Positions 9,489 through 30,974 of a DNA stretch of 64,000 bases are shown here, piece after piece (the stretch's first letter is position 1; each line of letters opens with the position of its first letter). The translations under genes and the position numbers were made by a program. Origin of the DNA: Escherichia coli (GTDB lineage: Bacteria; Pseudomonadota; Gammaproteobacteria; Enterobacterales; Enterobacteriaceae); assembly GCF_030384885.1 (NCBI RefSeq), contig NZ_CP128613.1. One strand, written 5' to 3'. Below the pieces are notes generated by a model. The model was not told the DNA's origin. It worked only from the letters and a program-made list of their open reading frames with translations, and did not search any database.

Positions 9489-9497
9489 CATTGTCGG

Positions 9498-11459: not shown

Positions 11460-11468
11460 ATTCACTCC

Positions 11469-14332: not shown

Positions 14333-14337
14333 GAATA

Positions 14338-14370: not shown

Positions 14371-14415
14371 TTGTGATCTCAATCACATATCCACCCGACG
14401 AATAATTCTTGCCCA

Positions 14416-14444: not shown

Positions 14445-14599
14445 GTCCCTAAAATAACCACTCAGTTATTTACCTTACTTTACGCGCGCGTAACTCTGGC
14501 AACATCACTGCAGGATAGCGGTCAATTTACCTCCTCAAACGCAACGCAAACCTAGAACGGCTTCGGCCAACTATTAATCAATACATGCCAGGTTTTACT

Positions 14600-16750
14600 A
14601 TGGATACTAAAAAGATATTCAAGCACATACCCTGGGTGATTCTCGGAATCATCGGTGCATTCTGCCTCGCGGTAGTTGCATTACGTCGGGGGGAGCACGT
14701 CAGTGCCCTGTGGATCGTGGTCGCCTCTGTGTCGGTGTATCTGGTGGCTTATCGCTACTACAGTCTGTACATCGCCCAGAAAGTGATGAAACTCGACCCC
14801 ACGCGCGCGACGCCTGCGGTTATTAACAATGACGGTCTGAACTATGTTCCGACCAACCGTTACGTGTTGTTTGGTCACCACTTCGCCGCTATCGCCGGTG
14901 CGGGTCCGCTGGTTGGTCCGGTTCTCGCCGCGCAGATGGGCTACCTGCCTGGCACTCTGTGGCTGCTGGCGGGGGTAGTGCTGGCCGGTGCGGTACAGGA
15001 CTTTATGGTGCTGTTTATCTCCTCTCGCCGTAACGGTGCATCTCTCGGTGAGATGATCAAAGAAGAGATGGGGCCAGTGCCGGGGACTATCGCGCTGTTT
15101 GGCTGTTTCTTAATCATGATCATCATCCTCGCCGTTCTGGCGCTGATTGTGGTTAAAGCCCTGGCCGAAAGTCCGTGGGGTGTCTTCACCGTTTGCTCAA
15201 CCGTACCAATTGCGCTGTTTATGGGTATCTACATGCGCTTTATCCGTCCGGGACGTGTAGGTGAAGTCTCTGTTATTGGTATCGTGCTGCTGGTTGCCTC
15301 TATCTACTTCGGTGGCGTAATTGCTCACGATCCGTACTGGGGTCCGGCACTGACCTTTAAAGACACCACCATTACCTTCGCGCTGATTGGCTATGCGTTT
15401 GTTTCCGCACTGCTGCCGGTGTGGCTGATCCTCGCACCGCGCGACTATCTGGCAACCTTCCTGAAAATCGGCGTTATCGTCGGCCTGGCGCTGGGTATCG
15501 TGGTGTTGAACCCGGAACTGAAAATGCCTGCGATGACGCAGTACATTGACGGTACTGGCCCGCTGTGGAAAGGCGCTCTGTTCCCGTTCCTGTTCATCAC
15601 CATCGCCTGTGGTGCGGTATCTGGCTTCCACGCGCTGATCTCTTCCGGTACGACGCCGAAACTGCTGGCTAACGAAACCGACGCGCGTTTCATTGGCTAC
15701 GGCGCAATGCTGATGGAGTCCTTCGTGGCGATTATGGCGCTGGTTGCTGCATCCATCATCGAACCGGGTCTTTACTTCGCGATGAATACCCCGCCTGCGG
15801 GCCTTGGCATCACCATGCCTAACCTGCATGAAATGGGTGGCGAGAACGCGCCGATCATCATGGCGCAGCTGAAAGACGTTACCGCACACGCGGCAGCGAC
15901 TGTCAGCTCCTGGGGCTTCGTGATTTCGCCAGAGCAGATCCTGCAAACCGCGAAAGACATTGGTGAGCCTTCTGTCCTGAACCGTGCAGGTGGTGCGCCG
16001 ACGCTGGCGGTAGGTATCGCTCACGTGTTCCACAAAGTGCTGCCGATGGCTGACATGGGCTTCTGGTATCACTTCGGTATTCTGTTCGAAGCCCTGTTCA
16101 TCCTGACCGCGCTGGATGCGGGTACCCGTTCTGGCCGCTTTATGCTGCAAGACCTGCTGGGTAACTTCATCCCGTTCCTGAAAAAAACCGATTCTCTGGT
16201 TGCCGGTATCATCGGTACTGCGGGCTGTGTGGGTCTGTGGGGCTACCTGCTGTATCAGGGCGTGGTCGATCCGCTGGGCGGCGTTAAGAGCCTGTGGCCG
16301 CTGTTCGGTATCTCCAACCAGATGCTGGCAGCCGTAGCGCTGGTACTGGGCACCGTTGTGCTGATTAAGATGAAGCGCACCCAATACATCTGGGTGACTG
16401 TTGTTCCGGCTGTATGGCTGCTTATCTGCACCACCTGGGCGCTGGGCCTGAAACTGTTCAGCACCAACCCGCAGATGGAAGGCTTCTTCTATATGGCAAG
16501 CCAGTACAAAGAGAAGATTGCTAACGGTACTGACCTGACGGCACAGCAGATTGCCAACATGAACCACATCGTTGTGAACAACTACACCAACGCGGGCCTG
16601 AGTATTCTGTTCCTGATTGTGGTGTACAGCATCATCTTCTACGGTTTCAAAACCTGGTTGAAGGTGCGTAACAGCGACAAACGTACTGACAAAGAAACAC
16701 CGTACGTTCCAATCCCGGAAGGCGGCGTGAAGATCTCTTCGCACCACTAA
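14600..16750 (+). CDS. btsT: Pyruvate/H+ symporter BtsT (CstA family)
   Basis: 716 aa from ATG (MDTKKIFKHIPWVILG...); large polytopic CstA-family transporter; recognised as BtsT/YjiY. Confidence 0.92.
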   Translation: MDTKKIFKHIPWVILGIIGAFCLAVVALRRGEHVSALWIVVASVSVYLVAYRYYSLYIAQKVMKLDPTRATPAVINNDGLNYVPTNRYVLFGHHFAAIAGAGPLVGPVLAAQMGYLPGTLWLLAGVVLAGAVQDFMVLFISSRRNGASLGEMIKEEMGPVPGTIALFGCFLIMIIILAVLALIVVKALAESPWGVFTVCSTVPIALFMGIYMRFIRPGRVGEVSVIGIVLLVASIYFGGVIAHDPYWGPALTFKDTTITFALIGYAFVSALLPVWLILAPRDYLATFLKIGVIVGLALGIVVLNPELKMPAMTQYIDGTGPLWKGALFPFLFITIACGAVSGFHALISSGTTPKLLANETDARFIGYGAMLMESFVAIMALVAASIIEPGLYFAMNTPPAGLGITMPNLHEMGGENAPIIMAQLKDVTAHAAATVSSWGFVISPEQILQTAKDIGEPSVLNRAGGAPTLAVGIAHVFHKVLPMADMGFWYHFGILFEALFILTALDAGTRSGRFMLQDLLGNFIPFLKKTDSLVAGIIGTAGCVGLWGYLLYQGVVDPLGGVKSLWPLFGISNQMLAAVALVLGTVVLIKMKRTQYIWVTVVPAVWLLICTTWALGLKLFSTNPQMEGFFYMASQYKEKIANGTDLTAQQIANMNHIVVNNYTNAGLSILFLIVVYSIIFYGFKTWLKVRNSDKRTDKETPYVPIPEGGVKISSHH

Positions 16751-16758
16751 CCGTGTTT

Positions 16759-16784
16759 AGCCCCGCTTCGGCGGGGCTTTGTTC
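16759..16784 (+). terminator. GC-rich hairpin (AGCCCCGC-TTCG-GCGGGGCT) after btsT; terminator or attenuator before yjiX
   Basis: Stem-loop with GNRA-like loop followed by a T-rich stretch. Confidence 0.5.
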
Positions 16785-16799
16785 TTATCAGAGTGAACT

Positions 16800-17003
16800 A
16801 TGTTTGGTAACTTAGGACAGGCAAAAAAATATCTCGGCCAGGCGGCAAAGATGTTGATTGGCATTCCAGACTACGACAACTACGTCGAGCATATGAAGAC
16901 CAACCATCCCGACAAGCCGTACATGAGCTATGAAGAATTCTTCCGCGAACGCCAGAACGCGCGCTACGGCGGCGATGGTAAAGGCGGTATGCGCTGTTGT
17001 TAA
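16800..17003 (+). CDS. yjiX: Small protein YjiX (DUF466)
   Basis: 67-aa ORF ([21 protein letters not shown]...) recognised as YjiX; conserved position after btsT. Confidence 0.85.
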
Positions 17004-17013
17004 TGGAGAGAGC

Positions 17014-17970
17014 ATGAACCCGATTGCAGTTACCCTACTCACCGGTTTTTTAGGCGCAGGCAAAACCACCCTGCTGCGCCATATTCTTAATGAACAGCAC
17101 GGCTACAAAATTGCCGTGATTGAAAACGAATTCGGCGAAGTCTCCGTTGATGATCAACTGATTGGCGACCGCGCCACGCAGATCAAAACGCTGACCAACG
17201 GCTGCATCTGTTGTTCGCGCTCCAACGAGCTGGAGGACGCGCTACTCGACCTGCTGGATAATCTCGACAAGGGCAATATTCAGTTCGACCGTCTGGTCAT
17301 TGAATGCACAGGCATGGCCGATCCCGGCCCGATTATTCAGACCTTTTTCTCCCATGAGATTTTATGCCAGCGTTACCTGCTGGACGGCGTGATTGCGCTG
17401 GTGGATGCGGTACATGCCGATGAGCAGATGAACCAGTTCACCATCGCCCAGTCACAGGTTGGCTACGCCGACCGCATTCTGCTGACCAAAACCGACGTCG
17501 CAGGCGAAGCAGAAAAACTGCGTGAACGCCTGGCGCGCATCAACGCCCGCGCACCGGTCTACACCGTCACCCACGGCGACATCGATCTGGGCCTGCTGTT
17601 CAACACCAACGGTTTTATGCTGGAAGAAAACGTCGTCAGCACCAAACCACGTTTCCACTTTATCGCGGATAAACAAAACGATATTTCGTCGATTGTGGTG
17701 GAACTGGATTACCCGGTAGATATCAGCGAAGTTTCCCGCGTGATGGAAAACCTGCTGCTGGAGTCGGCGGATAAACTGCTACGTTACAAAGGGATGCTGT
17801 GGATTGACGGCGAACCTAATCGCCTGTTGTTCCAGGGCGTCCAGCGCCTCTACAGCGCCGACTGGGACCGCCCGTGGGGCGATGAAAAACCGCATAGCAC
17901 TATGGTGTTTATCGGGATTCAGCTGCCGGAGGATGAGATTCGGGCAGCGTTTGCGGGGTTGAGGAAGTAA
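17014..17970 (+). CDS. yjiA: GTPase YjiA (COG0523 / CobW-like G3E metallochaperone family)
   Basis: 318 aa from ATG preceded by GGAGAG; P-loop GFLGAGKTT and GCICCS metal-binding motif; the track ORF starts further upstream and overlaps yjiX. Confidence 0.92.
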   Translation: MNPIAVTLLTGFLGAGKTTLLRHILNEQHGYKIAVIENEFGEVSVDDQLIGDRATQIKTLTNGCICCSRSNELEDALLDLLDNLDKGNIQFDRLVIECTGMADPGPIIQTFFSHEILCQRYLLDGVIALVDAVHADEQMNQFTIAQSQVGYADRILLTKTDVAGEAEKLRERLARINARAPVYTVTHGDIDLGLLFNTNGFMLEENVVSTKPRFHFIADKQNDISSIVVELDYPVDISEVSRVMENLLLESADKLLRYKGMLWIDGEPNRLLFQGVQRLYSADWDRPWGDEKPHSTMVFIGIQLPEDEIRAAFAGLRK

Positions 17971-17978
17971 GGGGTTAT

Positions 17979-18009
17979 GGGCCGGATAAGGCGCAGCCGC
18001 ATCCGGCCT
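17979..18009. repeat. REP element between yjiA and mrr
   Basis: GCCGGATAAGGCGCAGCCGCATCCGGC, a typical E. coli REP palindrome. Confidence 0.6.
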
Positions 18010-18015
18010 GATATT

Positions 18016-18930
18016 TCACTCAAAATAGTCCATATCCAGTTTCGGCACCTTCAACAAACGTGAAGAAACCCCTACTTCGTTTTCGATCATTAAGTGCACC
18101 AGGCGTTCCCCATCAACCAACACCATACCCTCGACGGATTGGGCAAAGTCACGCGCCTGAGAAGTAAATCCAGAAGTGGTAATAAACACCCCACGTTTCG
18201 CTTTTTGCCCAGCCAGTGCGCCGTAAAATGCCTGTAATTCTGGCCTGCCTACAGTATTCTGCCAACGTTTTGCCTGAACATAAACTTTCTCCAGGCCAAG
18301 TTTATCAAGCGATATCACACCATCGATGCCACCATCTCCAGTACCGCCAACACGCTGCAAATCATCACGGTGGCCGCCATACCCCAGGCGATGCAAAACA
18401 TCCAGAACAATGACTTCAAAGCGCGAAGGAGAAACCTGCAATAAGTTTTCCAGAACCTCATCAGCCACCGCATCACGAAGCTCTTTTAGCGCCTGATCTA
18501 ACCGATCGTCCGGGCTGCTCTTTGCAAGTTCTTCATGATCGGGAGAGTCGGCTTTCGGATCTAAATCGACGGCATCCGGCCGTGACTTAAGTTTGACATT
18601 CACAAAAGCGAAGGCCAGATGGTTCGTCTCCTGCTCCGTCATTGGCTGGGGATGAGACGCAACCCAGTCAAAACCCGCAGGAGTCAGGCACCATTTGCCA
18701 CGCGACAAACTTTGCGACAACCCGGCACGTTTTAAACGGTCATGCGCCCAGCCTGCACGATTTTTATAAACAAGTTGTCCGCTGGTAATGACTTTCGCTC
18801 GCTGGCTGTCATCCAGTCCTAATGCATCCGCGGCAGCCTCATGAACATCACGCGCGGCTGCACCTTCCGGTTTTGTTGCCAGATAACGCAGAACAGGTTC
18901 AATAAATTTGTCATAGGTAGGAACCGTCAT
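18016..18930 (-). CDS. mrr: Mrr modification-dependent restriction endonuclease
   Basis: 304-aa ORF recognised as Mrr (MTVPTYDKFIEPVLRYL...); N-terminal winged helix and C-terminal Mrr nuclease domain. Confidence 0.92.
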   Translation of the reverse strand: MTVPTYDKFIEPVLRYLATKPEGAAARDVHEAAADALGLDDSQRAKVITSGQLVYKNRAGWAHDRLKRAGLSQSLSRGKWCLTPAGFDWVASHPQPMTEQETNHLAFAFVNVKLKSRPDAVDLDPKADSPDHEELAKSSPDDRLDQALKELRDAVADEVLENLLQVSPSRFEVIVLDVLHRLGYGGHRDDLQRVGGTGDGGIDGVISLDKLGLEKVYVQAKRWQNTVGRPELQAFYGALAGQKAKRGVFITTSGFTSQARDFAQSVEGMVLVDGERLVHLMIENEVGVSSRLLKVPKLDMDYFE

Positions 18931-19117
18931 AGTACATCCTTGCAGAATCAGGTAGATGTTTTTCGGCTACTATAACACTACCAAAATAGACGAACACGTT
19001 AGAAATGAGTCAGTTGCTGTGACCGTGGTCATTGCCCGGAAAGGTACAGAAAGCTAAGATGAGATGTTATGGGCCTTAAATATTTGGACAGGCCCGCACA
19101 GCAATGGATTAATAACA

Positions 19118-22100
19118 ATGATGAATAAATCCAATTTTGAATTCCTGAAGGGCGTCAACGACTTCACTTATGCCATCGCCTGTGCGGCGGAAAATAACTA
19201 CCCGGATGATCCCAACACGACGCTGATTAAAATGCGTATGTTTGGCGAAGCCACAGCGAAACATCTTGGTCTGTTACTCAACATCCCCCCTTGTGAGAAT
19301 CAACACGATCTCCTGCGCGAACTCGGCAAAATCGCCTTCGTTGATGACAACATCCTCTCTGTATTTCACAAATTACGCCGCATTGGTAACCAGGCGGTGC
19401 ACGAATATCATAACGATCTCGACGATGCCCAGATGTGCCTGCGGCTCGGGTTCCGCCTGGCTGTCTGGTACTACCGTCTGGTCACCAAAGATTATGACTT
19501 CCCGGTGCCGGTGTTTGTGTTGCCGGAACGTGGTGAAAACCTCTATCACCAGGAAGTGCTGACGCTAAAACAACAGCTTGAACAGCAGGCGCGAGAAAAA
19601 GCGCAGACTCAGGCGGAAGTGGAAGCGCAACAGCAGAAGCTGGTTGCCCTGAACGGCTATATCGCCATTCTGGAAGGCAAGCAGCAGGAAACCGAAGCGC
19701 AAACCCTGGCTCGCCTTGCGGCACTGGAAGCACAGCTCGCCGAGAAGAACGCGGAACTGGCAAAACAGACCGAACAGGAACGTAAGGCTTACCACAAAGA
19801 AATTACCGATCAGGCCATCAAGCGCACACTCAACCTTAGCGAAGAAGAGAGTCGCTTCCTGATTGACGCGCAACTGCGTAAAGCAGGCTGGCAGGCCGAC
19901 AGCAAAACCCTGCGCTTCTCCAAAGGCGCACGCCCTGAACCCGGCGTCAATAAAGCCATTGCTGAATGGCCGACCGGCAAAGATGAAACGGGTAATCAGG
20001 GCTTTGCGGATTATGTGCTGTTTGTCGGCCTCAAACCCATCGCGGTGGTAGAGGCGAAACGTAAAAATATCGACGTTCCCGGCAAGCTCAATGAGTCTTA
20101 TCGCTACAGCAAATGCTTCGATAATGGCTTCCTGCGGGAAACCTTGCTTGAGCACTACTCACCGGATGAAGTGCATGAAGCGGTGCCGGAGTATGAAACC
20201 AGCTGGCAGGACACCAGCGGCCAACAACGGTTTAAAATCCCCTTCTGCTACTCGACCAACGGGCGCGAATACCGCGCAGCAATGAAAACTAAAAGCGGCA
20301 TCTGGTATCGCGACGTGCGTGATACCCGTAATATGTCGAAAGCCTTACCCGAGTGGCATCGCCCGGAAGAGCTGCTGGAAATGCTCGGCAGTGAACCGCA
20401 AAAACAGAATCAGTGGTTTGCCGATAACCCTGGCATGAGCGAGCTGGGCCTGCGTTATTATCAGGAAGATGCCGTCCGCGCGGTTGAAAAGGCAATCGTC
20501 AAGGGTCAACAAGAGATCCTGCTGGCGATGGCGACCGGTACCGGTAAAACCCGTACGGCAATCGCCATGATGTTCCGCCTGATCCAGTCCCAACGTTTTA
20601 AACGCATTCTCTTCCTTGTGGATCGCCGTTCTCTTGGCGAGCAGGCGCTGGGGGCGTTTGAAGATACGCGTATTAACGGCGACACCTTCAACAGCATTTT
20701 CGACATTAAAGGTCTGACGGATAAATTCCCGGAAGACAGCACCAAAATTCACGTTGCCACCGTACAGTCGCTGGTGAAACGCACCCTGCAATCAGATGAA
20801 CCAATGCCGGTGGCCCGTTACGACTGTATCGTCGTTGACGAAGCGCATCGCGGCTATATTCTCGATAAAGAGCAGACCGAAGGCGAGCTGCAGTTCCGCA
20901 GCCAGCTGGATTACGTCTCTGCCTACCGTCGCATTCTCGATCACTTCGATGCGGTAAAAATCGCCCTCACCGCCACCCCGGCGCTGCATACGGTGCAGAT
21001 TTTCGGCGAGCCGGTTTACCGTTATACCTACCGTACCGCGGTTATCGACGGTTTTCTGATCGACCAGGATCCGCCGATCCAAATCACCACCCGCAACGCC
21101 CAGGAGGGAGTTTATCTCGCCAAAGGCGAGCAGGTTGAGCGCATCAGCCCGCAGGGGGAAGTGATCAACGACACCCTGGAAGACGATCAGGATTTTGAGG
21201 TCGCCGACTTTAACCGTGGCCTGGTGATCCCGGCGTTTAACCGCGCCGTCTGTAACGAACTCACCAACTACCTTGACCCGACCGGGTTACAAAAAACGCT
21301 GGTCTTCTGCGTCACTAATGCTCATGCCGATATGGTGGTGGAAGAGCTGCGTGCCGCGTTCAAGAAAAAGTATCCGCAACTGGAGCACGACGCGATCATC
21401 AAGATCACTGGTGATGCCGATAAAGACGCGCGCAAAGTGCAGACCATGATCACCCGCTTCAATAAAGAGCGGCTGCCCAATATCGTGGTAACCGTCGACC
21501 TGCTGACGACCGGCGTCGATATTCCGTCGATCTGTAATATCGTGTTCCTGCGTAAAGTACGCAGCCGCATTCTGTACGAACAGATGAAAGGCCGCGCCAC
21601 GCGCTTATGCCCGGAGGTGAATAAAACCAGCTTTAAGATTTTTGACTGTGTCGATATCTACAGCACGCTGGAGAGCGTCGACACCATGCGTCCGGTGGTG
21701 GTGCGTCCGAAGGTGGAACTGCAAACGCTGGTCAACGAAATTACCGATTCAGAAACCTATAAAATCACCGAAGCGGATGGCCGCAGTTTTGCCGAGCACA
21801 GCCATGAACAACTGGTGGCGAAGCTCCAGCGCATCATCGGCCTGGCCACGTTTAACCGTGACCGCAGCGAAACGATAGATAAACAGGTGCGTCGTCTGGA
21901 TGAGCTATGCCAGGACGCGGCGGGCGTGAACTTTAACGGCTTCGCCTCGCGCCTGCGTGAAAAAGGGCCGCACTGGAGCGCCGAAGTCTTTAACAAACTG
22001 CCTGGCTTTATCGCCCGTCTGGAAAAGCTGAAAACGGACATCAACAACCTGAATGATGCGCCGATCTTCCTCGATATCGACGATGAAGTGGTGAGTGTAA

Positions 22101-22630
22101 AATCGCTGTACGGTGATTACGACACGCCGCAGGATTTCCTCGAAGCCTTTGACTCGCTGGTGCAACGTTCCCCGAACGCGCAACCGGCATTGCAGGCAGT
22201 TATTAATCGCCCGCGCGATCTCACCCGTAAAGGGCTGGTCGAGCTACAGGAGTGGTTTGACCGCCAGCACTTTGAGGAATCTTCCCTGCGCAAAGCATGG
22301 AAAGAGACGCGCAATGAAGATATCGCCGCCCGGCTGATTGGTCATATTCGCCGCGCTGCGGTGGGCGATGCGCTGAAACCGTTTGAGGAACGTGTCGATC
22401 ACGCGCTGACGCGTATCAAGGGCGAAAACGACTGGAGCAGCGAGCAATTAAGCTGGCTCGATCGTTTAGCGCAGGCGCTGAAAGAGAAAGTGGTGCTCGA
22501 CGACGATGTCTTCAAAACCGGCAATTTCCACCGTCGCGGCGGGAAGGCGATGCTGCAAAGAACCTTTGACGATAATCTCGACAGCCTGCTCGATAAATTC
22601 AGCGATTATATCTGGGACGAACTGGCCTGA
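19118..22630 (+). CDS. hsdR: Type I restriction enzyme R subunit (EcoKI-family, type IA)
   Basis: 1170 aa from ATG-ATG (MMNKSNFEFLKG...); SF2 helicase motifs (GTGKT, DEAH); the track ORF extends 18 codons upstream to ATG 19064. Confidence 0.9.
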   Translation: MMNKSNFEFLKGVNDFTYAIACAAENNYPDDPNTTLIKMRMFGEATAKHLGLLLNIPPCENQHDLLRELGKIAFVDDNILSVFHKLRRIGNQAVHEYHNDLDDAQMCLRLGFRLAVWYYRLVTKDYDFPVPVFVLPERGENLYHQEVLTLKQQLEQQAREKAQTQAEVEAQQQKLVALNGYIAILEGKQQETEAQTLARLAALEAQLAEKNAELAKQTEQERKAYHKEITDQAIKRTLNLSEEESRFLIDAQLRKAGWQADSKTLRFSKGARPEPGVNKAIAEWPTGKDETGNQGFADYVLFVGLKPIAVVEAKRKNIDVPGKLNESYRYSKCFDNGFLRETLLEHYSPDEVHEAVPEYETSWQDTSGQQRFKIPFCYSTNGREYRAAMKTKSGIWYRDVRDTRNMSKALPEWHRPEELLEMLGSEPQKQNQWFADNPGMSELGLRYYQEDAVRAVEKAIVKGQQEILLAMATGTGKTRTAIAMMFRLIQSQRFKRILFLVDRRSLGEQALGAFEDTRINGDTFNSIFDIKGLTDKFPEDSTKIHVATVQSLVKRTLQSDEPMPVARYDCIVVDEAHRGYILDKEQTEGELQFRSQLDYVSAYRRILDHFDAVKIALTATPALHTVQIFGEPVYRYTYRTAVIDGFLIDQDPPIQITTRNAQEGVYLAKGEQVERISPQGEVINDTLEDDQDFEVADFNRGLVIPAFNRAVCNELTNYLDPTGLQKTLVFCVTNAHADMVVEELRAAFKKKYPQLEHDAIIKITGDADKDARKVQTMITRFNKERLPNIVVTVDLLTTGVDIPSICNIVFLRKVRSRILYEQMKGRATRLCPEVNKTSFKIFDCVDIYSTLESVDTMRPVVVRPKVELQTLVNEITDSETYKITEADGRSFAEHSHEQLVAKLQRIIGLATFNRDRSETIDKQVRRLDELCQDAAGVNFNGFASRLREKGPHWSAEVFNKLPGFIARLEKLKTDINNLNDAPIFLDIDDEVVSVKSLYGDYDTPQDFLEAFDSLVQRSPNAQPALQAVINRPRDLTRKGLVELQEWFDRQHFEESSLRKAWKETRNEDIAARLIGHIRRAAVGDALKPFEERVDHALTRIKGENDWSSEQLSWLDRLAQALKEKVVLDDDVFKTGNFHRRGGKAMLQRTFDDNLDSLLDKFSDYIWDELA

Positions 22631-22830
22631 CACGTATACACTTCATCCTTCAGGCTGCCTCTGCGTTGGCTGCGCTCGTTCACCCCGGTCACGTACTTCT
22701 GTACGCTCCCGGGGATTCACTCACTTGCCGCCTTGATGCAACCTGAATGATTTTGTGTATATTACCCTCGGCAATTTCTTCTTCTGCGGCCCGATGAATT
22801 TGGGCCGCTGCTTAATTTACGGAACTCACA

Positions 22831-24420
22831 ATGAACAATAACGATCTGGTCGCGAAGCTGTGGAAGCTGTGCGACAACCTGCGCGATGGCGGCGTTTCCT
22901 ATCAAAACTACGTCAATGAACTCGCCTCGCTGCTGTTTTTGAAAATGTGTAAAGAAACCGGACAGGAAGCGGAATACCTGCCGGAAGGCTACCGCTGGGA
23001 TGACCTGAAATCCCGTATCGGCCAGGAGCAGTTGCAGTTCTACCGTAACCTGCTGGTACATCTGGGCGCCGACAATCAAAAGCTGGTGCAGGCAGTGTTC
23101 CAGAACGTCAACACCACCATTACCCAGCCGAAACAGTTGACCGAGCTGGTCAGCAATATGGATTCACTGGACTGGTACAACGGCGCGCACGGTAAGTCGC
23201 GCGATGACTTCGGCGATATGTACGAAGGGCTGTTGCAGAAGAACGCGAATGAAACCAAGTCTGGCGCGGGCCAGTACTTCACCCCGCGTCCGCTGATTAA
23301 AACCATTATTCATCTGCTGAAACCGCAGCCGCGTGAAGTGGTGCAGGACCCGGCGGCAGGTACGGCGGGCTTTTTGATTGAAGCCGACCGCTATGTTAAG
23401 TCGCAAACTAATGATCTGGACGACCTTGATGGCGACACGCAGGATTTCCAGATCCACCGCGCGTTTATCGGCCTCGAACTGGTGCCCGGCACCCGTCGTC
23501 TGGCACTGATGAACTGCCTGCTGCACGATATTGAAGGCAACCTCGACCACGGCGGCGCAATCCGTCTGGGCAACACCCTGGGCAGCGACGGTGAAAACCT
23601 GCCGAAAGCGCATATTGTCGCCACTAACCCGCCGTTTGGCAGCGCCGCAGGCACCAACATTACCCGCACCTTTGTTCACCCGACCAGCAACAAACAGTTG
23701 TGCTTTATGCAGCATATTATCGAAACGCTGCATCCCGGCGGTCGTGCGGCGGTCGTGGTGCCGGATAACGTACTGTTTGAAGGCGGCAAAGGCACCGACA
23801 TCCGTCGTGACCTGATGGATAAGTGTCATCTGCACACCATTCTGCGTCTGCCGACCGGTATTTTTTACGCGCAGGGCGTGAAAACCAACGTGCTGTTCTT
23901 TACCAAAGGGACGGTGGCGAATCCGAATCAGGATAAGAACTGTACCGACGACGTGTGGGTGTACGACCTGCGTACCAATATGCCGAGCTTCGGCAAGCGC
24001 ACGCCGTTTACCGACGAGCATTTGCAGCCGTTTGAGCGCGTGTATGGCGAAGACCCGCACGGTTTAAGCCCGCGCACTGAAGGGGAATGGAGTTTTAACG
24101 CCGAAGAGACGGAAGTTGCCGACAGCGAAGAGAACAAAAACACCGATCAGCATCTGGCCACCAGCCGCTGGCGCAAGTTCAGCCGCGAGTGGATCCGCAC
24201 CGTGAAATCCGATTCGCTGGATATCTCCTGGCTGAAAGATAAAGACAGCATCGACGCCGACAGCCTGCCGGAGCCGGATGTGTTAGCGGCAGAAGCGATG
24301 GGTGAACTGGTACAGGCATTGGGTGAACTGGATGCGCTGATGCGTGAACTGGGGGCGAGCGATGAGGCGGATGCACAGCGTCAGTTGCTGGAAGAAGCGT
24401 TTGGTGGGGTGAAAGAATGA
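22831..24420 (+). CDS. hsdM: Type I restriction-modification N6-adenine DNA methyltransferase M subunit
   Basis: 529-aa ORF (MNNNDLVAKLWKLCDNLRDGG...) with the NPPF catalytic motif; recognised as EcoKI-type HsdM. Confidence 0.93.
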   Translation: MNNNDLVAKLWKLCDNLRDGGVSYQNYVNELASLLFLKMCKETGQEAEYLPEGYRWDDLKSRIGQEQLQFYRNLLVHLGADNQKLVQAVFQNVNTTITQPKQLTELVSNMDSLDWYNGAHGKSRDDFGDMYEGLLQKNANETKSGAGQYFTPRPLIKTIIHLLKPQPREVVQDPAAGTAGFLIEADRYVKSQTNDLDDLDGDTQDFQIHRAFIGLELVPGTRRLALMNCLLHDIEGNLDHGGAIRLGNTLGSDGENLPKAHIVATNPPFGSAAGTNITRTFVHPTSNKQLCFMQHIIETLHPGGRAAVVVPDNVLFEGGKGTDIRRDLMDKCHLHTILRLPTGIFYAQGVKTNVLFFTKGTVANPNQDKNCTDDVWVYDLRTNMPSFGKRTPFTDEHLQPFERVYGEDPHGLSPRTEGEWSFNAEETEVADSEENKNTDQHLATSRWRKFSREWIRTVKSDSLDISWLKDKDSIDADSLPEPDVLAAEAMGELVQALGELDALMRELGASDEADAQRQLLEEAFGGVKE

Positions 24421-25805
24421 GTTTCAACTCAACATCAAAAGAATTAATTGAGCAAAATATCAATGGGTTACTTTCAAGCCATGAGAGCTGGTTACGTATT
24501 CCAATGGATTCCGTAGCAAACATCACAAACGGTTTTGCTTTTAAGTCGGCAGAATTTAATAATCGTAAAGATGGTGTACCATTAATTAGAATTCGTGATG
24601 TTCTTAAAGGTAGTACATCGACTTATTACTCGGGGCAAATTCCTGAGGGATATTGGGTATATCCCGAAGACTTAATCGTGGGAATGGATGGTGATTTTAA
24701 TACAACTATATGGCGCTCGGAGCCCGCTCTGTTAAATCAACGAGTATGTAAAATCGAAGTTCAGGAAGACAAATACAATAAAAGATTTTTCTATCATGCC
24801 TTACCAGGATATTTATCCGCAATCAATGCAAATACGTCCTCGGTTACTGTAAAGCATCTTTCTTCCAGGACACTTCAAGATACCCTACTTCCGTTGCCAC
24901 CACTTGCCGAACAAAAAATCATCGCTGAAAAACTCGATACGCTGCTGGCGCAGGTAAACAGCACCAAAGCACGTCTTGAGCAAATCCCACAAAACCTGAA
25001 ACGTTTTCGTCAGGCGGTGCTTCATGTTGCAGTGAGCGGGAAATTAACTGAAAAATGGCGATTAGAAAATGCAACTTTAGAAAACTCATACGAATGGAAG
25101 GTGCAATCTTTATCTGATCTTGGTGTTTTAGCTCGAGGTAAATCTAAACATCGACCTAGAAACGATCCTCGCCTATTTGGGGATAAGTATCCATTTATTC
25201 AAACAGGTGAAGTTGCCAATAGTTCAGGAAGAATTAAAAGAGCAAATAAATTTTATAGTGAGTTTGGTTTATCACAAAGCAAGCTATTTCCAAAAGATAC
25301 CTTATGTATAACTATTGCTGCCAACATTGCGGATACAGCCATATTAGAGATTGAGGCATGTTTCCCGGACAGTGTCGTTGGTTTCATTTCTGATAAAGAT
25401 AAATCTCATGTATCCTTTGTGAAGTATCTAATTGATGTTAACAAAGATAATCTTGAAGCATTTGCACCAGCTACAGCACAAAAAAATATTAACTTAAAGG
25501 TTTTAAACGAACTTAAACTTCCTATTCCTGATATTAAAGAACAAGCCGAAATCGTTCGCCGCGTCGAGCAACTCTTCGCCTACGCCGACACCATAGAAAA
25601 ACAGGTCAACAACGCCCTGGCCCGCGTCAACAACCTGACGCAATCCATCCTGGCAAAAGCGTTCCGTGGTGAACTCACCGCCCAGTGGCGGGCCGAAAAC
25701 CCGGATTTGATCAGCGGAGAAAACAGCGCCGCCGCGTTGCTGGAAAAAATCAAAGCTGAACGCGCAGCCAGCGGGGGTAAAAAAGCCTCACGTAAAAAAT
25801 CCTGA
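24417..25805 (+). CDS. hsdS: Type I restriction-modification specificity subunit; EcoKI-family scaffold with non-K-12 target-recognition domains
   Basis: 462-aa ORF; ATG overlaps the hsdM stop (ATGA); central and C-terminal conserved regions (LPPLAEQKIIAEKLDTLLAQV..., EQAEIVRRVEQLFAYADTIEKQ...) match the EcoKI family as I recall it, but the two variable regions do not, and they are AT-rich. Confidence 0.9.
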   Translation: MSFNSTSKELIEQNINGLLSSHESWLRIPMDSVANITNGFAFKSAEFNNRKDGVPLIRIRDVLKGSTSTYYSGQIPEGYWVYPEDLIVGMDGDFNTTIWRSEPALLNQRVCKIEVQEDKYNKRFFYHALPGYLSAINANTSSVTVKHLSSRTLQDTLLPLPPLAEQKIIAEKLDTLLAQVNSTKARLEQIPQNLKRFRQAVLHVAVSGKLTEKWRLENATLENSYEWKVQSLSDLGVLARGKSKHRPRNDPRLFGDKYPFIQTGEVANSSGRIKRANKFYSEFGLSQSKLFPKDTLCITIAANIADTAILEIEACFPDSVVGFISDKDKSHVSFVKYLIDVNKDNLEAFAPATAQKNINLKVLNELKLPIPDIKEQAEIVRRVEQLFAYADTIEKQVNNALARVNNLTQSILAKAFRGELTAQWRAENPDLISGENSAAALLEKIKAERAASGGKKASRKKS

Positions 25806-25818
25806 ACATTATTTTCTG

Positions 25819-25842
25819 GCGCACCTTTCCGGTGCGCTTTTT
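25819..25842 (+). terminator. Rho-independent terminator of the hsdMS operon
   Basis: GCGCACC-TTTCC-GGTGCGC followed by TTTTT. Confidence 0.65.
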
Positions 25843-25939
25843 ATTATTTCACGCCAATCATAACCCACATAAATATATTTAAATCATTCCAGAAATTGCC
25901 CATTTTATTCTATTTTTAGCTGGACTTTCCCCATATTTA

Positions 25940-25955
25940 CTGATGATATATCCAG
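25940..25955. promoter_or_regulatory. Candidate LexA (SOS) box upstream of symE
   Basis: CTGATGATATATCCAG fits CTG-N10-CAG with an AT-rich centre; symE is known to be SOS-induced. Confidence 0.55.
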
Positions 25956-25959
25956 GTAT

Positions 25960-26045
25960 TTAGCGCGGTGCGGATGTGCGCCAACACACCCGCACCGCTA
26001 ATCACAATCCCTATTTCTAAGGAATAGTAATCATGACTGACACGC
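25960..26045 (-). ncRNA. symR: Approximate position of SymR antisense sRNA (overlaps symE 5-prime UTR and start codon)
   Basis: Placed from established knowledge of the symE/symR locus, not from a sequence signal I can delimit exactly. Confidence 0.35.
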
Positions 26046-26374
26046 ATTCTATTGCACAACCGTTCGAAGCAGAAGTCTCCCCGGCAAATAACCGTCAATT
26101 AACCGTGAGTTATGCGAGTCGCTACCCGGATTACAGCCGTATTCCCGCCATCACCCTGAAAGGTCAGTGGCTGGAAGCCGCCGGTTTTGCCACCGGCACG
26201 GCGGTAGATGTCAAAGTGATGGAAGGCTGTATTGTCCTCACCGCCCAACCACCCGCCCCCGAAGAGAGCGAACTGATGCAGTCACTGCGCCAGGTGTGCA
26301 AACTGTCAGCGCGTAAACAAAAGCAGGTGAAGGAGTTTATTGGGGTGATTGCCGGTAAACAGAAAGTCGCGTAA
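26033..26374 (+). CDS. symE: SymE, SOS-induced toxin-like protein (AbrB-fold, type I TA-like module)
   Basis: 113-aa ORF ([38 protein letters not shown]...) recognised as SymE. Confidence 0.92.
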
Positions 26375-26535
26375 CAGCGTTTACTCCCGGTTAACCACCG
26401 GGAGCCTTCCACTGACTCAATAGAAACTTTCCCCCTCAGTAAATATTTACCAGTCTGATTTTGCAGTAAAAATCTATTGTTTCAGTACGTTGCGAAAGCG
26501 ATAATAGAGGCTTAGCAATGAGGAAGGCATATCTT

Positions 26536-27915
26536 ATGGAATCTATTCAACCCTGGATTGAAAAATTTATTAAGCAAGCACAGCAACAACGTTCGCAATC
26601 CACTAAAGATTATCCAACGTCTTACCGTAACCTGCGAGTAAAATTGAGTTTCGGTTATGGTAATTTTACGTCTATTCCCTGGTTTGCATTTCTTGGAGAA
26701 GGTCAGGAAGCTTCTAACGGTATATATCCCGTTATTCTCTATTATAAAGATTTTGATGAGTTGGTTTTGGCTTATGGTATAAGCGACACGAATGAACCAC
26801 ATGCCCAATGGCAGTTCTCTTCAGACATACCTAAAACAATCGCAGAGTATTTCCAGGCAACTTCAGGTGTATATCCTAAAAAATACGGACAGTCCTATTA
26901 CGCCTGTTCCCAAAAAGTCTCACAGGGTCTTGATTATACCCGGTTTGCCTCCATGCTGGACAACATAATCAACGACTATAAATTAATATTTAATTCTGGC
27001 AAGAGTGTTATTCCACCTATGTCAAAAACTGAATCATACTGTCTGGAAGATGCGTTAAATGATTTGTTTATCCCTGAAACCACGATAGAGACGATACTCA
27101 AACGATTAACCATCAAAAAAAATATTATCCTCCAGGGGCCGCCCGGCGTTGGAAAAACCTTTGTTGCACGCCGTCTGGCTTACTTGCTGACAGGGGAAAA
27201 GGCTCCGCAACGCGTCAATATGGTTCAGTTCCATCAATCTTATAGCTATGAGGATTTTATACAGGGCTATCGTCCGAATGGTGTCGGCTTCCGACGTAAA
27301 GACGGTATATTTTACAATTTTTGTCAGCAAGCTAAAGAGCAGCCAGAGAAAAAGTATGTTTTTATTATAGATGAAATCAATCGTGCCAATCTCAGTAAAG
27401 TATTTGGCGAAGTGATGATGTTAATGGAACATGATAAACGAGGTGAAAACTGGTCTGTTCCCTTAACCTACTCCGAAAACGATGAAGAACGATTCTATGT
27501 TCCGGAGAATGTTTATATTATCGGTTTAATGAATACTGCCGATCGCTCTCTGGCCGTTGTTGATTATGCCCTGCGCAGACGATTTTCTTTCATAGATATT
27601 GAGCCAGGTTTTGATACGCCACAGTTCCGGAATTTTTTACTGAATAAAAAAGCAGAACCTTCATTTGTTGAATCTTTATGCCAAACAATGAACGAGTTAA
27701 ACCAGGAAATCAGCAAAGAGGCCACTATCCTTGGGAAAGGATTCCGCATTGGGCATAGTTACTTCTGCTCCGGGTTGGAAGATGGCACATCTCCTGATAC
27801 GCAATGGCTTAAGGAAATTGTGATGACGGATATCGCCCCTTTACTCGAAGAATATTTCTTTGATGATCCCTATAAACAACAGATATGGACCGACAAATTA
27901 TTAGGTGACTCATAG
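26536..27915 (+). CDS. mcrB: McrB, GTPase (AAA+) subunit of the 5-methylcytosine-dependent restriction enzyme McrBC
   Basis: 459 aa from ATG with AGGAAGG upstream (MESIQPWIEKF...); P-loop GPPGVGKT; AT-rich composition. Confidence 0.93.
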   Translation: MESIQPWIEKFIKQAQQQRSQSTKDYPTSYRNLRVKLSFGYGNFTSIPWFAFLGEGQEASNGIYPVILYYKDFDELVLAYGISDTNEPHAQWQFSSDIPKTIAEYFQATSGVYPKKYGQSYYACSQKVSQGLDYTRFASMLDNIINDYKLIFNSGKSVIPPMSKTESYCLEDALNDLFIPETTIETILKRLTIKKNIILQGPPGVGKTFVARRLAYLLTGEKAPQRVNMVQFHQSYSYEDFIQGYRPNGVGFRRKDGIFYNFCQQAKEQPEKKYVFIIDEINRANLSKVFGEVMMLMEHDKRGENWSVPLTYSENDEERFYVPENVYIIGLMNTADRSLAVVDYALRRRFSFIDIEPGFDTPQFRNFLLNKKAEPSFVESLCQTMNELNQEISKEATILGKGFRIGHSYFCSGLEDGTSPDTQWLKEIVMTDIAPLLEEYFFDDPYKQQIWTDKLLGDS

Positions 27916-28961
27916 TGGAACAGCCCGTGATACCTGTCCGTAATATCTATTACATGCTTACCTATGCATGGGGTTATTTACAGGAAATTAAGCAGGCCGA
28001 CCTTGAAGCCATTCCCGGTAACAATCTTCTTGATATCCTGGGGTATGTATTAAATAAAGGGGTTTTACAGCTTTCACGCCGAGGGCTTGAGCTTGATTAC
28101 AATCCTAATACAGAAATCATTCCTGGCATCAAAGGGCGAATAGAGTTTGCTAAAACAATACGCGGCTTCCATCTTAATCATGGGAAAACCGTCAGTACGT
28201 TTGATATGCTTAATGAAGACACGCTGGCTAACCGAATTATAAAAAGCACATTAGCCATGTTAATTAAGCATGAAAAGTTAAACTCAGCCATCAGAGATGA
28301 AGCTCGTTCACTTTATAGAAAATTACCGGGCATTAGCACTCTTCATTTAACTCCACAGCATTTCAGCTATCTGAATGGCGGAAAAAATACGCGTTATTAT
28401 AAATTCGTTATAAGTGTCTGCAAGTTCATCGTCAATAATTCTATTCCAGGTCAAAACAAAGGACACTACCGTTTCTATGATTTTGAAAGAAACGAAAAAG
28501 AGATGTCATTACTTTATCAAAAGTTTCTTTATGAATTTTGCCGCCGTGAATTAACGTCTGCAAACACAACCCGCTCTTATTTAAAATGGGATGCATCGAG
28601 CATATCGGATCAGTCACTTAATTTGTTACCTCGAATGGAAACTGACATCACCATTCGCTCATCAGAAAAAATACTTATCGTTGACGCCAAATACTATAAG
28701 AGCATTTTTTCACGACGAATGGGCTCAGAAAAATTTCATTCTCAAAATCTTTATCAACTGATGAATTACTTATGGTCGTTAAAGCCTGAAAATGGCGAAA
28801 ACATAGGGGGCTTATTAATATACCCCCACGTAGATACCGCAGTGAAACATCGTTATAAAATTAATGGCTTCGATATTGGCTTGTGTACCGTCAATTTAGG
28901 TCAGGAATGGCCGTGTATACATCAAGAATTACTCGACATTTTCGGTGAATATCTCAAATAA
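27915..28961 (+). CDS. mcrC: McrC, nuclease subunit of McrBC
   Basis: 348-aa ORF with GTG start overlapping the mcrB stop (MEQPVIPVRNIYYMLTY...); recognised as McrC. Confidence 0.93.
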   Translation: MEQPVIPVRNIYYMLTYAWGYLQEIKQADLEAIPGNNLLDILGYVLNKGVLQLSRRGLELDYNPNTEIIPGIKGRIEFAKTIRGFHLNHGKTVSTFDMLNEDTLANRIIKSTLAMLIKHEKLNSAIRDEARSLYRKLPGISTLHLTPQHFSYLNGGKNTRYYKFVISVCKFIVNNSIPGQNKGHYRFYDFERNEKEMSLLYQKFLYEFCRRELTSANTTRSYLKWDASSISDQSLNLLPRMETDITIRSSEKILIVDAKYYKSIFSRRMGSEKFHSQNLYQLMNYLWSLKPENGENIGGLLIYPHVDTAVKHRYKINGFDIGLCTVNLGQEWPCIHQELLDIFGEYLK

Positions 28962-28983
28962 GCGGTAAGTTTTATAGAAAATA

Positions 28984-29010
28984 CCGCTCCCGACACCACA
29001 TCGGGAGCGG
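28984..29010 (-). terminator. Hairpin between convergent mcrC and the downstream minus-strand ORF pair
   Basis: CCGCTCCCGA-N7-TCGGGAGCGG; the T-rich flank is on the minus-strand side. Confidence 0.6.
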
Positions 29011-29017
29011 CTCATCA

Positions 29018-29353
29018 TCAGGAGGCGATCACCTCCACCAGCACATCCGTTGCCCAGCTCTCTTCACTGTTGACCACATTCCCTTCCTGACAAGCTTGAT
29101 CCATTTTGACTAACTGGAAAGAAACGTCATCGCGGAAATCAAAGTAATGCCATTGCGATGAAAAGTTGATGCGCCAGTAGCCCATCCCCTGATCGAAGCG
29201 GATCTTCAATACCTGACCATCCTCAAAAGTCACCGTCAGTTTACGATGGTGAGGGATATCGCGCGGCGAGTCGAACACCGTCAGTTCTACCGGCCTGCCC
29301 AGCGCAGCAGCAAACCACTGATCAGCGAAATCCTGAAAATCCGCTATGCTCAT
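29018..29353 (-). CDS. Hypothetical protein (111 aa), translationally coupled to the upstream 277-aa ORF
   Basis: ORF-track frame; its ATG overlaps the stop of the upstream ORF (ATGA); no family recognised by eye; may be a remnant of the yjiT/yjiV-type gene found at this position in K-12. Confidence 0.5.
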
Positions 29354-30183
29354 CCAGTCATGGAAAGGCCGGTTAGCAGTCCATTCAAAAAATGCGTTCC
29401 TGTTTCATCATCTAACGGTATTGGAAACTCGCTTCGCCAGGTAGGGTGAACCTTATCAAGCTGTTGTACTGGTTCTTTGTGATTTATTAGGTTGTGAGTA
29501 AGTACTAAGGAATTGAGGTTATCAGCCATATGACTGATAAGTTCTACAGAGGTATCTTCGCTAAAAACAGTAGGCAGCGCTGATTTTTCTATGACAGCTC
29601 TTGCCAGCGAAAGGGCTGAAAAACCTGACTGCTTTGCTTGCTCATATTGTCCAAGGATCCTGGAGAAAACAGCCAGAAAGCGACTGTCTGATTCTTTGAG
29701 TAGCCGGAAAGGTAAACCACCTTCACTGAATAATGTTCCGAGAAAATTGCGTCGTTCAGATTCATAAAATCGAATTGGGCGCAGCCAGTAATCTTCCATC
29801 CCTTTCGGTACGATAGTACCAAGCTCTGTGGCGGTGAATGAAATCCCTATTTTTTTATATATAGGGTCCCACGTCCATCCGCATTGCCGTTCATAATCCC
29901 TGCGGTACCACTCAGAGCAAAAAAGAACAAAACAGGCAGCAAAGTCCCTATTACATATATTAGATTGTGATTGACCGACTGCACGGAGTAGCTGCGTTAA
30001 TTGGGTATATTCATCATTGGTTGCATGATATTCATAAAGAGGACGGCCATCCGGTTGTCTCAACCCTCTAAGATTCACAAAGTTACTTAGCCAGGAAGTA
30101 CATTTTACCCATGAAATGTATTCTGATTGACCCAAAGCAAGCTCCTTAGAGATAAAAGATACAAAAACAAAACCCCACAACAT
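29350..30183 (-). CDS. Hypothetical protein (277 aa) in the mcrC-yjiS variable slot
   Basis: ORF-track frame; AT-rich relative to flanking core genes; no obvious Shine-Dalgarno; no family recognised by eye. Confidence 0.5.
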
Positions 30184-30633
30184 TTCTAATTTGAAAGAAA
30201 ACCTTTCAGAATATTGTATAGTTACTCAGGCGGCAACAACTATTTTTTCAGGTCGATACTATAAATCAATTTTAGATAAAAATGATATCAACCATCTATT
30301 AATCACAACTCATTTATCACCTGATTTTATAATTTCAAATGAAAATAAATCTCAAACAATCAAAAAGTATTCAGTAGCTGACATTTAACTTTCCAGGATA
30401 TAAAACAATTAGAGAAACTGCACAATAGCGAATAATGAGAGTTGTAAAGTCAGTCAAAAAACACAAGTAATCACTGTGCGTTTTTTGACCGTTATCGACA
30501 TGAGTTTAAAGAGGTTAGTGAAGAAGATATTCCTGTACACTCCATACCTATTGATGAATTGTCTCGGGAAAATTTTTATAACTTAATATAAAAACATAAA
30601 AACGTTTTATTATATATAAATCTATATCCCCCC

Positions 30634-30798
30634 TCACTCCACATCCTCCCTGCGTAACCCGATATCCCTCAACCGCTCATCACTCATCTGCTGTAACACG
30701 CGTCGGGTCTGCATTTGCCGCCGCCAACGCCTCACCGCCTGCCAGAGTTGCACAAGGCCGATAAACGGCGCTTTAGCTCTGTTTTCGTGAAATTCCAT
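30634..30798 (-). CDS. yjiS: YjiS (DUF1127) small protein
   Basis: 54 aa read from the minus strand (MEFHENRAKAPFIGLVQLWQAVRRWRRQMQTRRVLQQMSDERLRDIGLRREDVE); not in the supplied ORF track because it is under 60 aa. Confidence 0.8.
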   Translation of the reverse strand: MEFHENRAKAPFIGLVQLWQAVRRWRRQMQTRRVLQQMSDERLRDIGLRREDVE

Positions 30799-30974
30799 CT
30801 GCTGCCTCCTCATCTTTCAGAGGCTTCATCATCCGCCTTCTGGCAGTTCACAATACAGATGCAAATATTAGTTTTATTTAACATACAGACAGGTTAAAAC
30901 AACATCTGCATCCGGTTTTTTAGCCTCATCTGTACCGGTTTTTCTCTCTGTATGGTCCAAATAAGGAGTACAGC

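Follow-up and report, generated by a model that had tools for sequence, protein, structure and literature searches.

Immigration control region of an Escherichia coli chromosome with a hybrid hsdS gene and a Druantia III remnant

Gene content of the locus

Positions 18016-28961 of the window, i.e. the whole 64,000-nt stretch of E. coli DNA analysed here, carry mrr, hsdR-hsdM-hsdS (type IA), symR/symE and mcrB-mcrC, in the gene order of the E. coli immigration control region (ICR) and in the orientation opposite to K-12. Gene identities are based on PADLOC, Pfam, NCBIfam and Rfam profile searches and on the RefSeq annotation. The reading frames of mrr, hsdRMS, symE and mcrBC are all intact, with K-12 counterparts that are near-identical or clear equivalogs. 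PADLOC profiles gave no match to SymE or McrC in the window, which reflects a gap in the profile library, as both are identified by NCBIfam and Pfam. The interval is colinear with the K-12 ICR (mrr-hsdRMS(EcoKI)-symE/symR-mcrBC-yjiV-yjiT), with matching gene order, orientations and intergenic elements and, leaving aside the variable parts of hsdS, ~98% nucleotide identity. With the annotated RefSeq genome of E. coli 2013C-4282, the identity is 100%. An earlier note on this DNA had described the genes as contiguous and the locus as well described, and both points hold; the ICR is also covered by two reviews (PMC12707154, PMC3874165). The same note counted four restriction systems, but the interval has three (Mrr, the type I HsdRMS and McrBC) plus SymE/SymR.

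According to PMC12707154, the enterobacterial ICR, or hotspot 36, is the yjiA-yjiN interval with its variable defence content. In the window, the conserved anchor yjiA lies at 17014-17970, with variable defence content beyond it toward the yjiN side. A DUF445 protein is encoded at 35204-36616, preceded by an MFS-transporter ORF; their position in the K-12 layout suggests that they are yjiN and mdtM, respectively. We put the probability at about 90% that the interval represents the ICR of E. coli, a defence island on the chromosome whose mosaic structure arose through recombination between conserved flanks. As a textbook defence island with a copy in RefSeq, the locus is not new. Among 5426 complete E. 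coli genomes, mrr is carried by 951, hsdRM by 938, symE by 2872 and mcrBC by 596. Past bookkeeping, the locus has little significance, being ordinary save for a rare recombinant hsdS and the wrecked Druantia operon adjoining it.

The mrr gene (18016-18930, minus strand) is intact and encodes EcoKMrr, a type IV modification-dependent endonuclease of 304 aa. Both the Mrr_N winged-helix and the Mrr_cat PD-(D/E)xK domains of Pfam are found in the product, placing it among the Mrr proteins, and it gives a full-length match to PADLOC mREase_IV (E = 3.5e-175), in agreement with the RefSeq annotation. As described for the K-12 protein, Mrr cleaves DNA with foreign adenine or cytosine methylation. At the nucleotide level, mrr is 100% identical to that of K-12, as part of a 1028-nt identical tract (17947-18974) that takes in 24 nt at the end of yjiA, the intergenic spacer, the whole of mrr and 44 nt beyond. 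With a background divergence of 2.2%, finding 0 differences in 1028 nt has a Poisson P of ~1.5e-10. Nucleotide diversity over six genomes is 0.006 in the tract, fourfold lower than the 0.025 seen in both flanks. One mrr allele may have spread recently by recombination.

The restriction subunit HsdR (1170 aa; 19118-22630, plus strand, longest ORF start at 19064) scores 1740 bits against NCBIfam NF008521 (cut-off 729) and is matched by PADLOC REase_I over 1-1170/1170; 13 of its 1170 residues differ from EcoKI HsdR and the gene contains no stops. HsdM, the N6-adenine methyltransferase subunit (529 aa; 22831-24420, plus strand), carries the Pfam domains N6_Mtase (E = 1.5e-94) and HsdM_N, differs from EcoKI HsdM at 13/529 residues, and has a stop codon that overlaps the hsdS start. 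By sequence, HsdR and HsdM both belong to type IA (EcoKI-family), a family defined by HsdR and HsdM subunits that closely resemble those of EcoKI and can be exchanged with them. As described for the K-12 proteins, an enzyme of this kind (HsdR2M2S1) adds methyl groups at its own bipartite site, and DNA lacking the modification is cut following ATP-driven translocation.

The gene symE (26033-26374, plus strand) encodes SymE, a type I toxin that is SOS-induced in K-12, as a 113-aa protein with the Pfam SymE_toxin domain and 228.5 bits against NCBIfam NF010128 (cut-off 132); it differs from K-12 SymE by 6 amino acids. The cis-antisense RNA antitoxin gene symR (25962-26038, minus strand) overlaps the symE start codon and matches Rfam RF01809 over its full length (1-77; 93.1 bits, gathering score 61, E = 1.7e-17). 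An ORF with a cis antisense RNA over its 5' end is the arrangement of a SymE/SymR type I toxin-antitoxin pair, which these genes form. In K-12, symE is under LexA control (PMC1891008), and the toxin is described as being restrained by LexA, the antisense RNA SymR and Lon. No site of the strict LexA consensus CTGT-N8-ACAG was found near symE, while the looser pattern CTG-N10-CAG finds a K-12-type box upstream of it. This candidate LexA-type operator (TACTGATGATATATCCAGGT; 25938-25957, plus strand) lies at the K-12 position and is one base off the K-12 site (...ATACAGGT), with A changed to C beside the CAG half-site; the same CCAG variant occurs in E. coli B. Because of this difference, SOS control of symE is extrapolated here from K-12.

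Base composition and the mcrBC cassette

Against a background GC of 0.50, GC content is 0.506 in mrr, 0.541 in hsdR, 0.562 in hsdM, 0.412 in hsdS, 0.541 in symE and 0.393 in mcrBC. Within hsdS, it is 0.38 in TRD1, 0.48 in the central region, 0.34 in TRD2 and 0.56 in the 3' conserved region. Third-position GC (GC3; background 0.57) ranges from 0.692 in hsdM and 0.643 in hsdR over 0.459 in mrr to 0.37-0.39 in mcrBC and 0.35 in hsdS, and the low-GC3 genes (0.35-0.39) differ from the 37 other genes of the window (median 0.573; Mann-Whitney p = 5e-4). The codon adaptation index and a parallel, window-internal codon index gave broadly the same ranking. The compositional mosaicism proposed in the earlier note is borne out quantitatively by GC, GC3 and codon indices, and uniform composition, looked for in the same analysis, is not what was found. 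That note had set AT-rich mcrBC and hsdS variable regions against hsdR/hsdM and mrr: the low GC of the former stands, but mrr, with its GC3, does not group with hsdR/hsdM. Its suggestion of separate acquisition or exchange is supported independently of composition by the hybrid hsdS and by the mcrBC insertion/deletion.

McrB (459 aa; 26536-27915, plus strand), the GTPase and 5-methylcytosine-binding subunit, scores 1103 bits against NF008457 (cut-off 637) and carries the Pfam domains AAA_5 and MrcB_N. Its motifs GPPGVGKT (residue 201) and NTAD (333) are intact, and an internal McrB-S start (ATG) lies at 27019. The nuclease subunit McrC (348 aa; 27915-28961, plus strand, GTG start) contains the Pfam McrBC domain, scores 450 bits against NF007277 (cut-off 338) and shows 5 amino-acid differences from K-12 McrC. 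The two genes overlap by one base and have the features of a McrBC type IV system, which, according to work on K-12, needs GTP and cleaves DNA between two RmC sites. A text search of the literature for a statement on the G+C content of mcrBC returned nothing usable. Its low G+C was probably already remarked upon around 1990.

Strain HKUOPY1 lacks a unit of 2614 bp (26371-28984, GC 0.394) that contains mcrBC; there, symE abuts druE with a single, clean, shared terminator. In the window, the unit is bracketed by two similar hairpins, CTCCCGG-N7-CCGGGAG (26386-26406) and CGCTCCCGA-N7-TCGGGAGCG (28986-29010), and its sharp ends coincide with the drop in GC. Flanked by the terminators of symE and druE, mcrBC is a low-GC cassette of 2.6 kb that is present or absent as a unit. 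No mcrBC is seen where a type IA hsdRMS adjoins intact druE/druH in Enterobacter and a genome titled Serratia. The cassette would have been inserted between symE and druE.

Alternatively, mcrBC could be the ancestral occupant of this position and have been lost repeatedly. This would fit the chromosomal location of all 596 copies, the placement of mcrBC directly downstream of symE in all loci examined (window, K-12, 2013C-4282 and REL606), the demonstrably frequent deletions in the region, and a divergence of mcrBC from K-12 (2.1%) that equals the background. Speaking against an ancestral occupant are a GC of 0.39 and a GC3 of 0.37-0.39 against backgrounds of 0.50 and 0.57, the presence of mcrBC in 11% of the E. 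coli genomes (596/5426) compared to 53% (2872) for symE, its absence from the type IA loci retrieved from Enterobacter, Serratia and Citrobacter, and the single terminator of the strain without it. Repeated loss is considered less likely, and insertion of the cassette is the tentatively preferred reading.

The hybrid hsdS gene

The specificity subunit gene hsdS (24417-25805, plus strand) encodes 462 aa with two Pfam Methylase_S domains in the layout TRD1-CR1-TRD2-CR2. TRD1 (24417-24902) is of EcoBI type and TRD2 (25023-25547) of HKUOPY1 type; the 120-nt central conserved region between them (24903-25022) and the C-terminal conserved region (25548-25805) have near-identical counterparts in EcoKI and EcoBI. 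Positions 24423-25019 share 96.8% nucleotide identity with E. coli B and positions 24900-25535 share 96.9% with HKUOPY1, while the full TRD1+TRD2 pair occurs in only 4 of 5426 genomes. These alignments show hsdS to be a natural hybrid, in which a crossover within the central conserved region has joined an EcoBI-type TRD1 to the rare TRD2 of another allele.

The enzyme in the window is not EcoKI itself (specificity AAC N6 GTGC). In the comparison to K-12, neither TRD has any nucleotide similarity to K-12 hsdS, both recognition domains are unlike those of EcoKI, and the protein reaches 377 bits with the EcoKI HsdS equivalog NF007278, under the cut-off of 662. Its N-terminal recognition domain and the first part of its central region are near-identical to those of EcoBI, the type IA enzyme of E. 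coli B (TGA N8 TGCT). The C-terminal recognition domains (175 aa in the window, 187 aa in EcoBI) are unrelated, so the TGCT half-site is not expected. About 7 residues of TRD1 differ from EcoBI in the protein alignment, which makes the TGA half-site, too, a prediction. The predicted target of the hybrid enzyme is TGA-(N)-X, in which X is the other half-site. That the hybrid has an uncharacterised type IA target (the TGA of EcoBI plus a new second half-site) and, more broadly, that TRDs could form a never-ameliorated gene pool shared across bacteria, in view of the strongly synonymous AT bias of hsdS variable regions described below, is a joint proposal that we favour slightly.

Hybrid type I specificities formed through crossing-over within the central conserved region go back to Nagaraja 1985 and Gann 1987, as cited in PMC12707154 and PMC3874165. 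StySQ and other hybrids have the same event architecture, with TRDs from two parents joined in a conserved spacer. StySQ-type hybrids are laboratory recombinants, whereas the hybrid in the window occurs naturally, in four sequenced genomes, and its specificity is a predicted one. It would exemplify, in nature, how domain reassortment changes specificity.

The GC of hsdS was compared with that of hsdM in other type I loci. The sample consisted of at least 120 loci from a public genome scan, in which the motif QSILAKAFRGEL from the C-terminal part of HsdS was matched in degenerate form; among the matches listed, it turned out to be pan-bacterial. The matches listed for QSILAKAFRGEL include no Salmonella locus; four other enterobacterial loci and PMC12707154 were used for comparison. 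Without its C-terminal conserved region, hsdS has a GC below that of the adjacent hsdM in 51/51 diverse type I loci among the matches listed, with a locus GC from 33% to 65% in the respective hosts. The deficit is nearly all synonymous (a mean of 22 points in GC3 versus 2.8 points in GC1+2). In all four type IA alleles compared, the TRDs are AT-rich regardless of specificity. Since low GC of the hsdS variable regions is family-wide, composition alone is no proof of local acquisition and cannot date events in this lineage, and it is unfit as the sole marker of recent acquisition.

These two regularities could also mean that the AT-rich segments are intrinsic, owing to the amino-acid needs of DNA recognition or to weak codon selection at low expression, and that the locus has been inherited vertically. 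A deficit that is almost wholly synonymous argues against this, and a large difference in expression between hsdS and hsdM is unlikely, because hsdS overlaps the hsdM stop and is co-oriented with it. Moreover, the hybrid hsdS allele and the presence/absence polymorphism of mcrBC show exchange directly, the two-parent structure of hsdS in the window being one case of incongruence between TRD and hsdM. Purely vertical inheritance is thus improbable, and a mosaic built by recombination is retained.

Remnant of a Druantia III operon

Beyond mcrC lie two ORFs, left as an unclassified pair in the earlier note, which can be classified by DruE3 and DruH3 profile matches as a remnant of Druantia type III (druH-druE). 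The druE 3' remnant (29018-29375, minus strand) retains the last ~118 of 2114 codons of the helicase-nuclease gene, contains a 111-aa ORF (29018-29353) and matches positions 1955-2053/2055 of the PADLOC DruE3 profile (E = 1.2e-21). The druH (yjiT) 5' remnant (29376-30135, minus strand) retains the first ~253 of 1096 codons, matching positions 3-257/1100 of DruH3 (E = 7e-139) and 1-237/1090 of NCBIfam YjiT_fam; its reading frame continues past the junction and stops at 29350, and the longest ORF is 29350-30183. According to PMC13192584, the YjiT family is linked to DruH.

The druE remnant is identical to 2013C-4282 up to 29375. At the junction (29374-29375), 8530 bp are lost relative to this strain (positions 1438-9967 of its retrieved locus, L003), with a 2-bp TA microhomology. 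The neighbouring druH-druE operon has, as far as can be read from the alignment, been destroyed by this 8.5-kb deletion. The junction occurs in 0/5426 complete genomes, and a deletion seen in the window alone may be an assembly error. Full-length DruH (~1100 aa) and DruE (~2050-2100 aa) are not encoded here; as ~23% of druH and ~6% of druE are left, the Druantia system cannot be functional, and the remnant is presumably inactive. In 2013C-4282 and an Enterobacter locus (L085), the pair is intact and sits at this site; the locus titled Serratia (L093) has druE only, within the span retrieved.

That the 111-aa and 277-aa ORFs form a functional small two-gene module, as their ATGA overlap (29350-29353), resembling translational coupling, might suggest, is hardly credible and was rejected, given that they align solely to the extreme ends of the far longer DruE and DruH, that intact genes for 2114 and 1096 aa stand in the same place in 2013C-4282, otherwise identical over 17 kb, and that the 277-aa ORF ends with 8 out-of-frame codons made by the deletion junction. 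K-12 also argues against such a module, as its druH-druE remnant has two smaller deletions instead of the single 8530-bp one, pointing to independent decay. Decay of Druantia III is the best reading of the ORFs after mcrC and of K-12 yjiT and yjiV.

Gene content of the immigration control region

The locus was correctly recognised by the earlier note as a well-described one, and no new kind of system is present. The 10.9-kb interval (18016-28961) is 100% identical to the corresponding region of E. coli 2013C-4282 (NZ_CP027579.1). In reversed orientation it is also colinear with the immigration control region of K-12 (~98% identity). The present analysis adds a corrected count of restriction systems, a hybrid hsdS, a delimited mcrBC indel, an mrr identity tract, a Druantia III remnant and a family-wide AT bias in hsdS variable regions.

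ORF listing, Pfam, NCBIfam, PADLOC and the RefSeq annotation of the identical genome agree on mrr (18016-18930, minus strand) and, on the plus strand, hsdR (19118-22630), hsdM (22831-24420), hsdS (24417-25805), symE (26033-26374), mcrB (26536-27915) and mcrC (27915-28961). The SymR antisense RNA (25962-26038, minus strand) scores 93.1 bits in Rfam (gathering score 61), and its overlap with symE includes the symE start codon. Therefore, the interval contains three restriction systems plus SymE/SymR, and the four restriction systems proposed earlier were a miscount. All genes have the K-12 length without internal stops, the GTPase motifs of McrB are intact, and the amino-acid changes relative to K-12 number 0 in Mrr, 13 in HsdR, 13 in HsdM, 6 in SymE, 7 in McrB and 5 in McrC.

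Upstream of symE lies a LexA-type site, TACTGATGATATATCCAGGT (25938-25957). The K-12 site ends in ACAGGT, unlike this one, while E. coli B has the same variant as the window. For K-12 symE, LexA control, repression by SymR and degradation by Lon were demonstrated (PMC1891008), and by analogy the same would be expected for this allele.

The hsdR-hsdM spacer carries a structured, repeat-like element of ~124 nt (22639-22762, minus strand), which matches Rfam V_AS5 (Vibrio RNA AS5) with 44.9 bits, under the gathering score of 96. Its core, GTGAATCCCCGGGAG...GTGACCGGGGTGAACGAGCG, presumably resembles the ERIC/IRU intergenic repeat. The element is kept in K-12, with a spacer divergence of 0.5%.

Mosaicism of the locus

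The mosaicism is real, both compositional and phylogenetic. As the earlier note had supposed, composition is not uniform: GC3 is 0.643 in hsdR and 0.692 in hsdM versus 0.352 in hsdS, 0.388 in mcrB and 0.370 in mcrC. Together with the druH fragment after mcrC (0.353), the latter three differ from the 37 other window genes (median 0.573; Mann-Whitney p = 5e-4). The grouping of mrr with hsdR/hsdM does not hold, its GC3 being intermediate (0.459). Two codon indices were used, one with Sharp-Li weights and one derived from the window's own genes, and both place hsdR and hsdM near the top of 38 genes. By the window-internal index, hsdS, mcrB, mcrC and the druH fragment are all among the lowest seven; by the Sharp-Li index, mcrC and the druH fragment are at the bottom, with hsdS 8th and mcrB 12th from it.

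GC varies along hsdS, from 0.38 in TRD1 (the N-terminal target recognition domain) and 0.34 in TRD2 (its C-terminal counterpart) to 0.48 in the central and 0.56 in the C-terminal conserved region. For comparison, a public genome scan supplied at least 120 loci, picked by a motif in the hsdS C-terminal conserved region, i.e. the region left out of the GC comparison; in 51, hsdM is followed by hsdS. Among the matches listed, hsdS had a lower GC than hsdM in 51/51 loci, by 9.2 points on average (Wilcoxon p = 5e-10). The gap for these loci averaged 22 points at GC3 (seen in 50 of the 51) and 2.8 points at GC1+2, so that the deficit is mostly synonymous. AT-richness of the TRDs thus characterises the family as a whole; it is compatible with a circulating TRD pool but dates no event in this lineage.

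Direct evidence for exchange outranks composition, and it is present at this locus. The exchange suggested earlier for hsdS is borne out by a hybrid allele: 24423-25019 matches E. coli B (EcoBI) at 96.8% identity and 24900-25535 matches strain HKUOPY1 at 96.9%, with the central conserved region shared by both matches. This pair occurs in only 4 of 5426 complete genomes, and the EcoKI HsdS equivalog model scores under its cut-off. Domain reassortment is a known mechanism in type I enzymes, matching this hybrid (PMC3874165, PMC12707154).

The separate history proposed for mcrBC is likewise supported. HKUOPY1 lacks mcrBC and has druE directly after symE, delimiting a presence/absence unit of 2614 bp (26371-28984, GC 0.394) whose ends match the GC drop. 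Terminator-like hairpins with a CTCCCG/CGGGAG stem flank it (26386-26406 and 28986-29010), and HKUOPY1 has one such hairpin only; the pair could mark a recombination site or be a chance resemblance. Module frequencies are unequal across the 5426 genomes, with symE/symR in 2872, mrr in 951, type IA hsdRM in 938, mcrBC in 596 and the whole interval (coverage ≥80%) in 581.

Divergence from K-12 is also uneven, at 4.5% in hsdM and 4.1% in symE against a background of 2.2%. A tract of 1028 nt containing all of mrr (17947-18974) has no differences from K-12 (Poisson P ~1.5e-10). Across six genomes, picked to cover low as well as high mrr identities, the tract has a nucleotide diversity of 0.006 and each flank one of 0.025.

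Druantia III remnant and related loci

The ORF pair noted after mcrC does exist, but it can be classified, as end fragments of DruE3 and DruH3. Of PADLOC DruE3, the 111-aa ORF (29018-29353, minus strand) covers no more than the final ~100 positions; of the 1100 positions of DruH3/YjiT, the 277-aa ORF (29350-30183, minus strand) covers just the initial ~257. At the same site, 2013C-4282 has yjiT intact (1096 aa), together with a 2114-aa DEAD/DEAH helicase; relative to this genome, 8530 bp are missing from the window, with the junction at 29374-29375 (TA microhomology). This junction was found in no complete genome of the collection (5426). K-12 has two deletions in the same operon, different from the one here, and only 232 of the 672 genomes carrying this druH-druE keep ≥80% of it. 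According to a 2026 preprint (PMC13192584), DruH is a member of the immigration control region's YjiT family; a 2025 review of the region makes no mention of Druantia. The druH-yjiS intergenic region including the druH start (30000-30600) has the lowest GC of the profiled 14000-34000 (0.29-0.32) and is nearly identical to K-12 (0.4% divergence).

In Enterobacter quasihormaechei and a genome titled Serratia sp. Ag1, type IA hsdRMS adjoins druE without mcrBC, with druH additionally seen in the former; two Citrobacter loci have hsdS-symE, also without mcrBC. Since HsdM and HsdR (92-96%) and DruE (89-90%) of the Enterobacter and Serratia loci are highly identical in protein sequence to the E. coli copies, these loci suggest that the hsdRMS-Druantia III block moves between genera as a unit.

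Other segments of the window

Between tsr and btsT, a ~5.9-kb segment (8503-14433) has no K-12 counterpart and no PADLOC defence matches; in 2013C-4282 its annotated genes include those for a protein of the N-acyl-D-amino-acid deacylase family and for an amino acid deaminase, along with their neighbours. An intact 318-aa Rpn/YhgA-like (Transposase_31) gene (32629-33585, minus strand) occupies the site of the K-12 rpnD pseudogene, and this stretch shows the greatest divergence from K-12 in the aligned region (~7% overall, with as many as 58 differences in 300 nt). A 693-aa ORF with pentapeptide repeats (39231-41312, plus strand) has no PADLOC match. It lies between an SdiA-regulated-family gene and a BadF/BadG/BcrA/BcrD ATPase-domain ORF (37887-38660), which to judge by its position is probably yjiL. 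Very AT-rich (GC 0.347, GC3 0.300), the 693-aa ORF has the most aberrant composition anywhere in the window outside 18016-28961.
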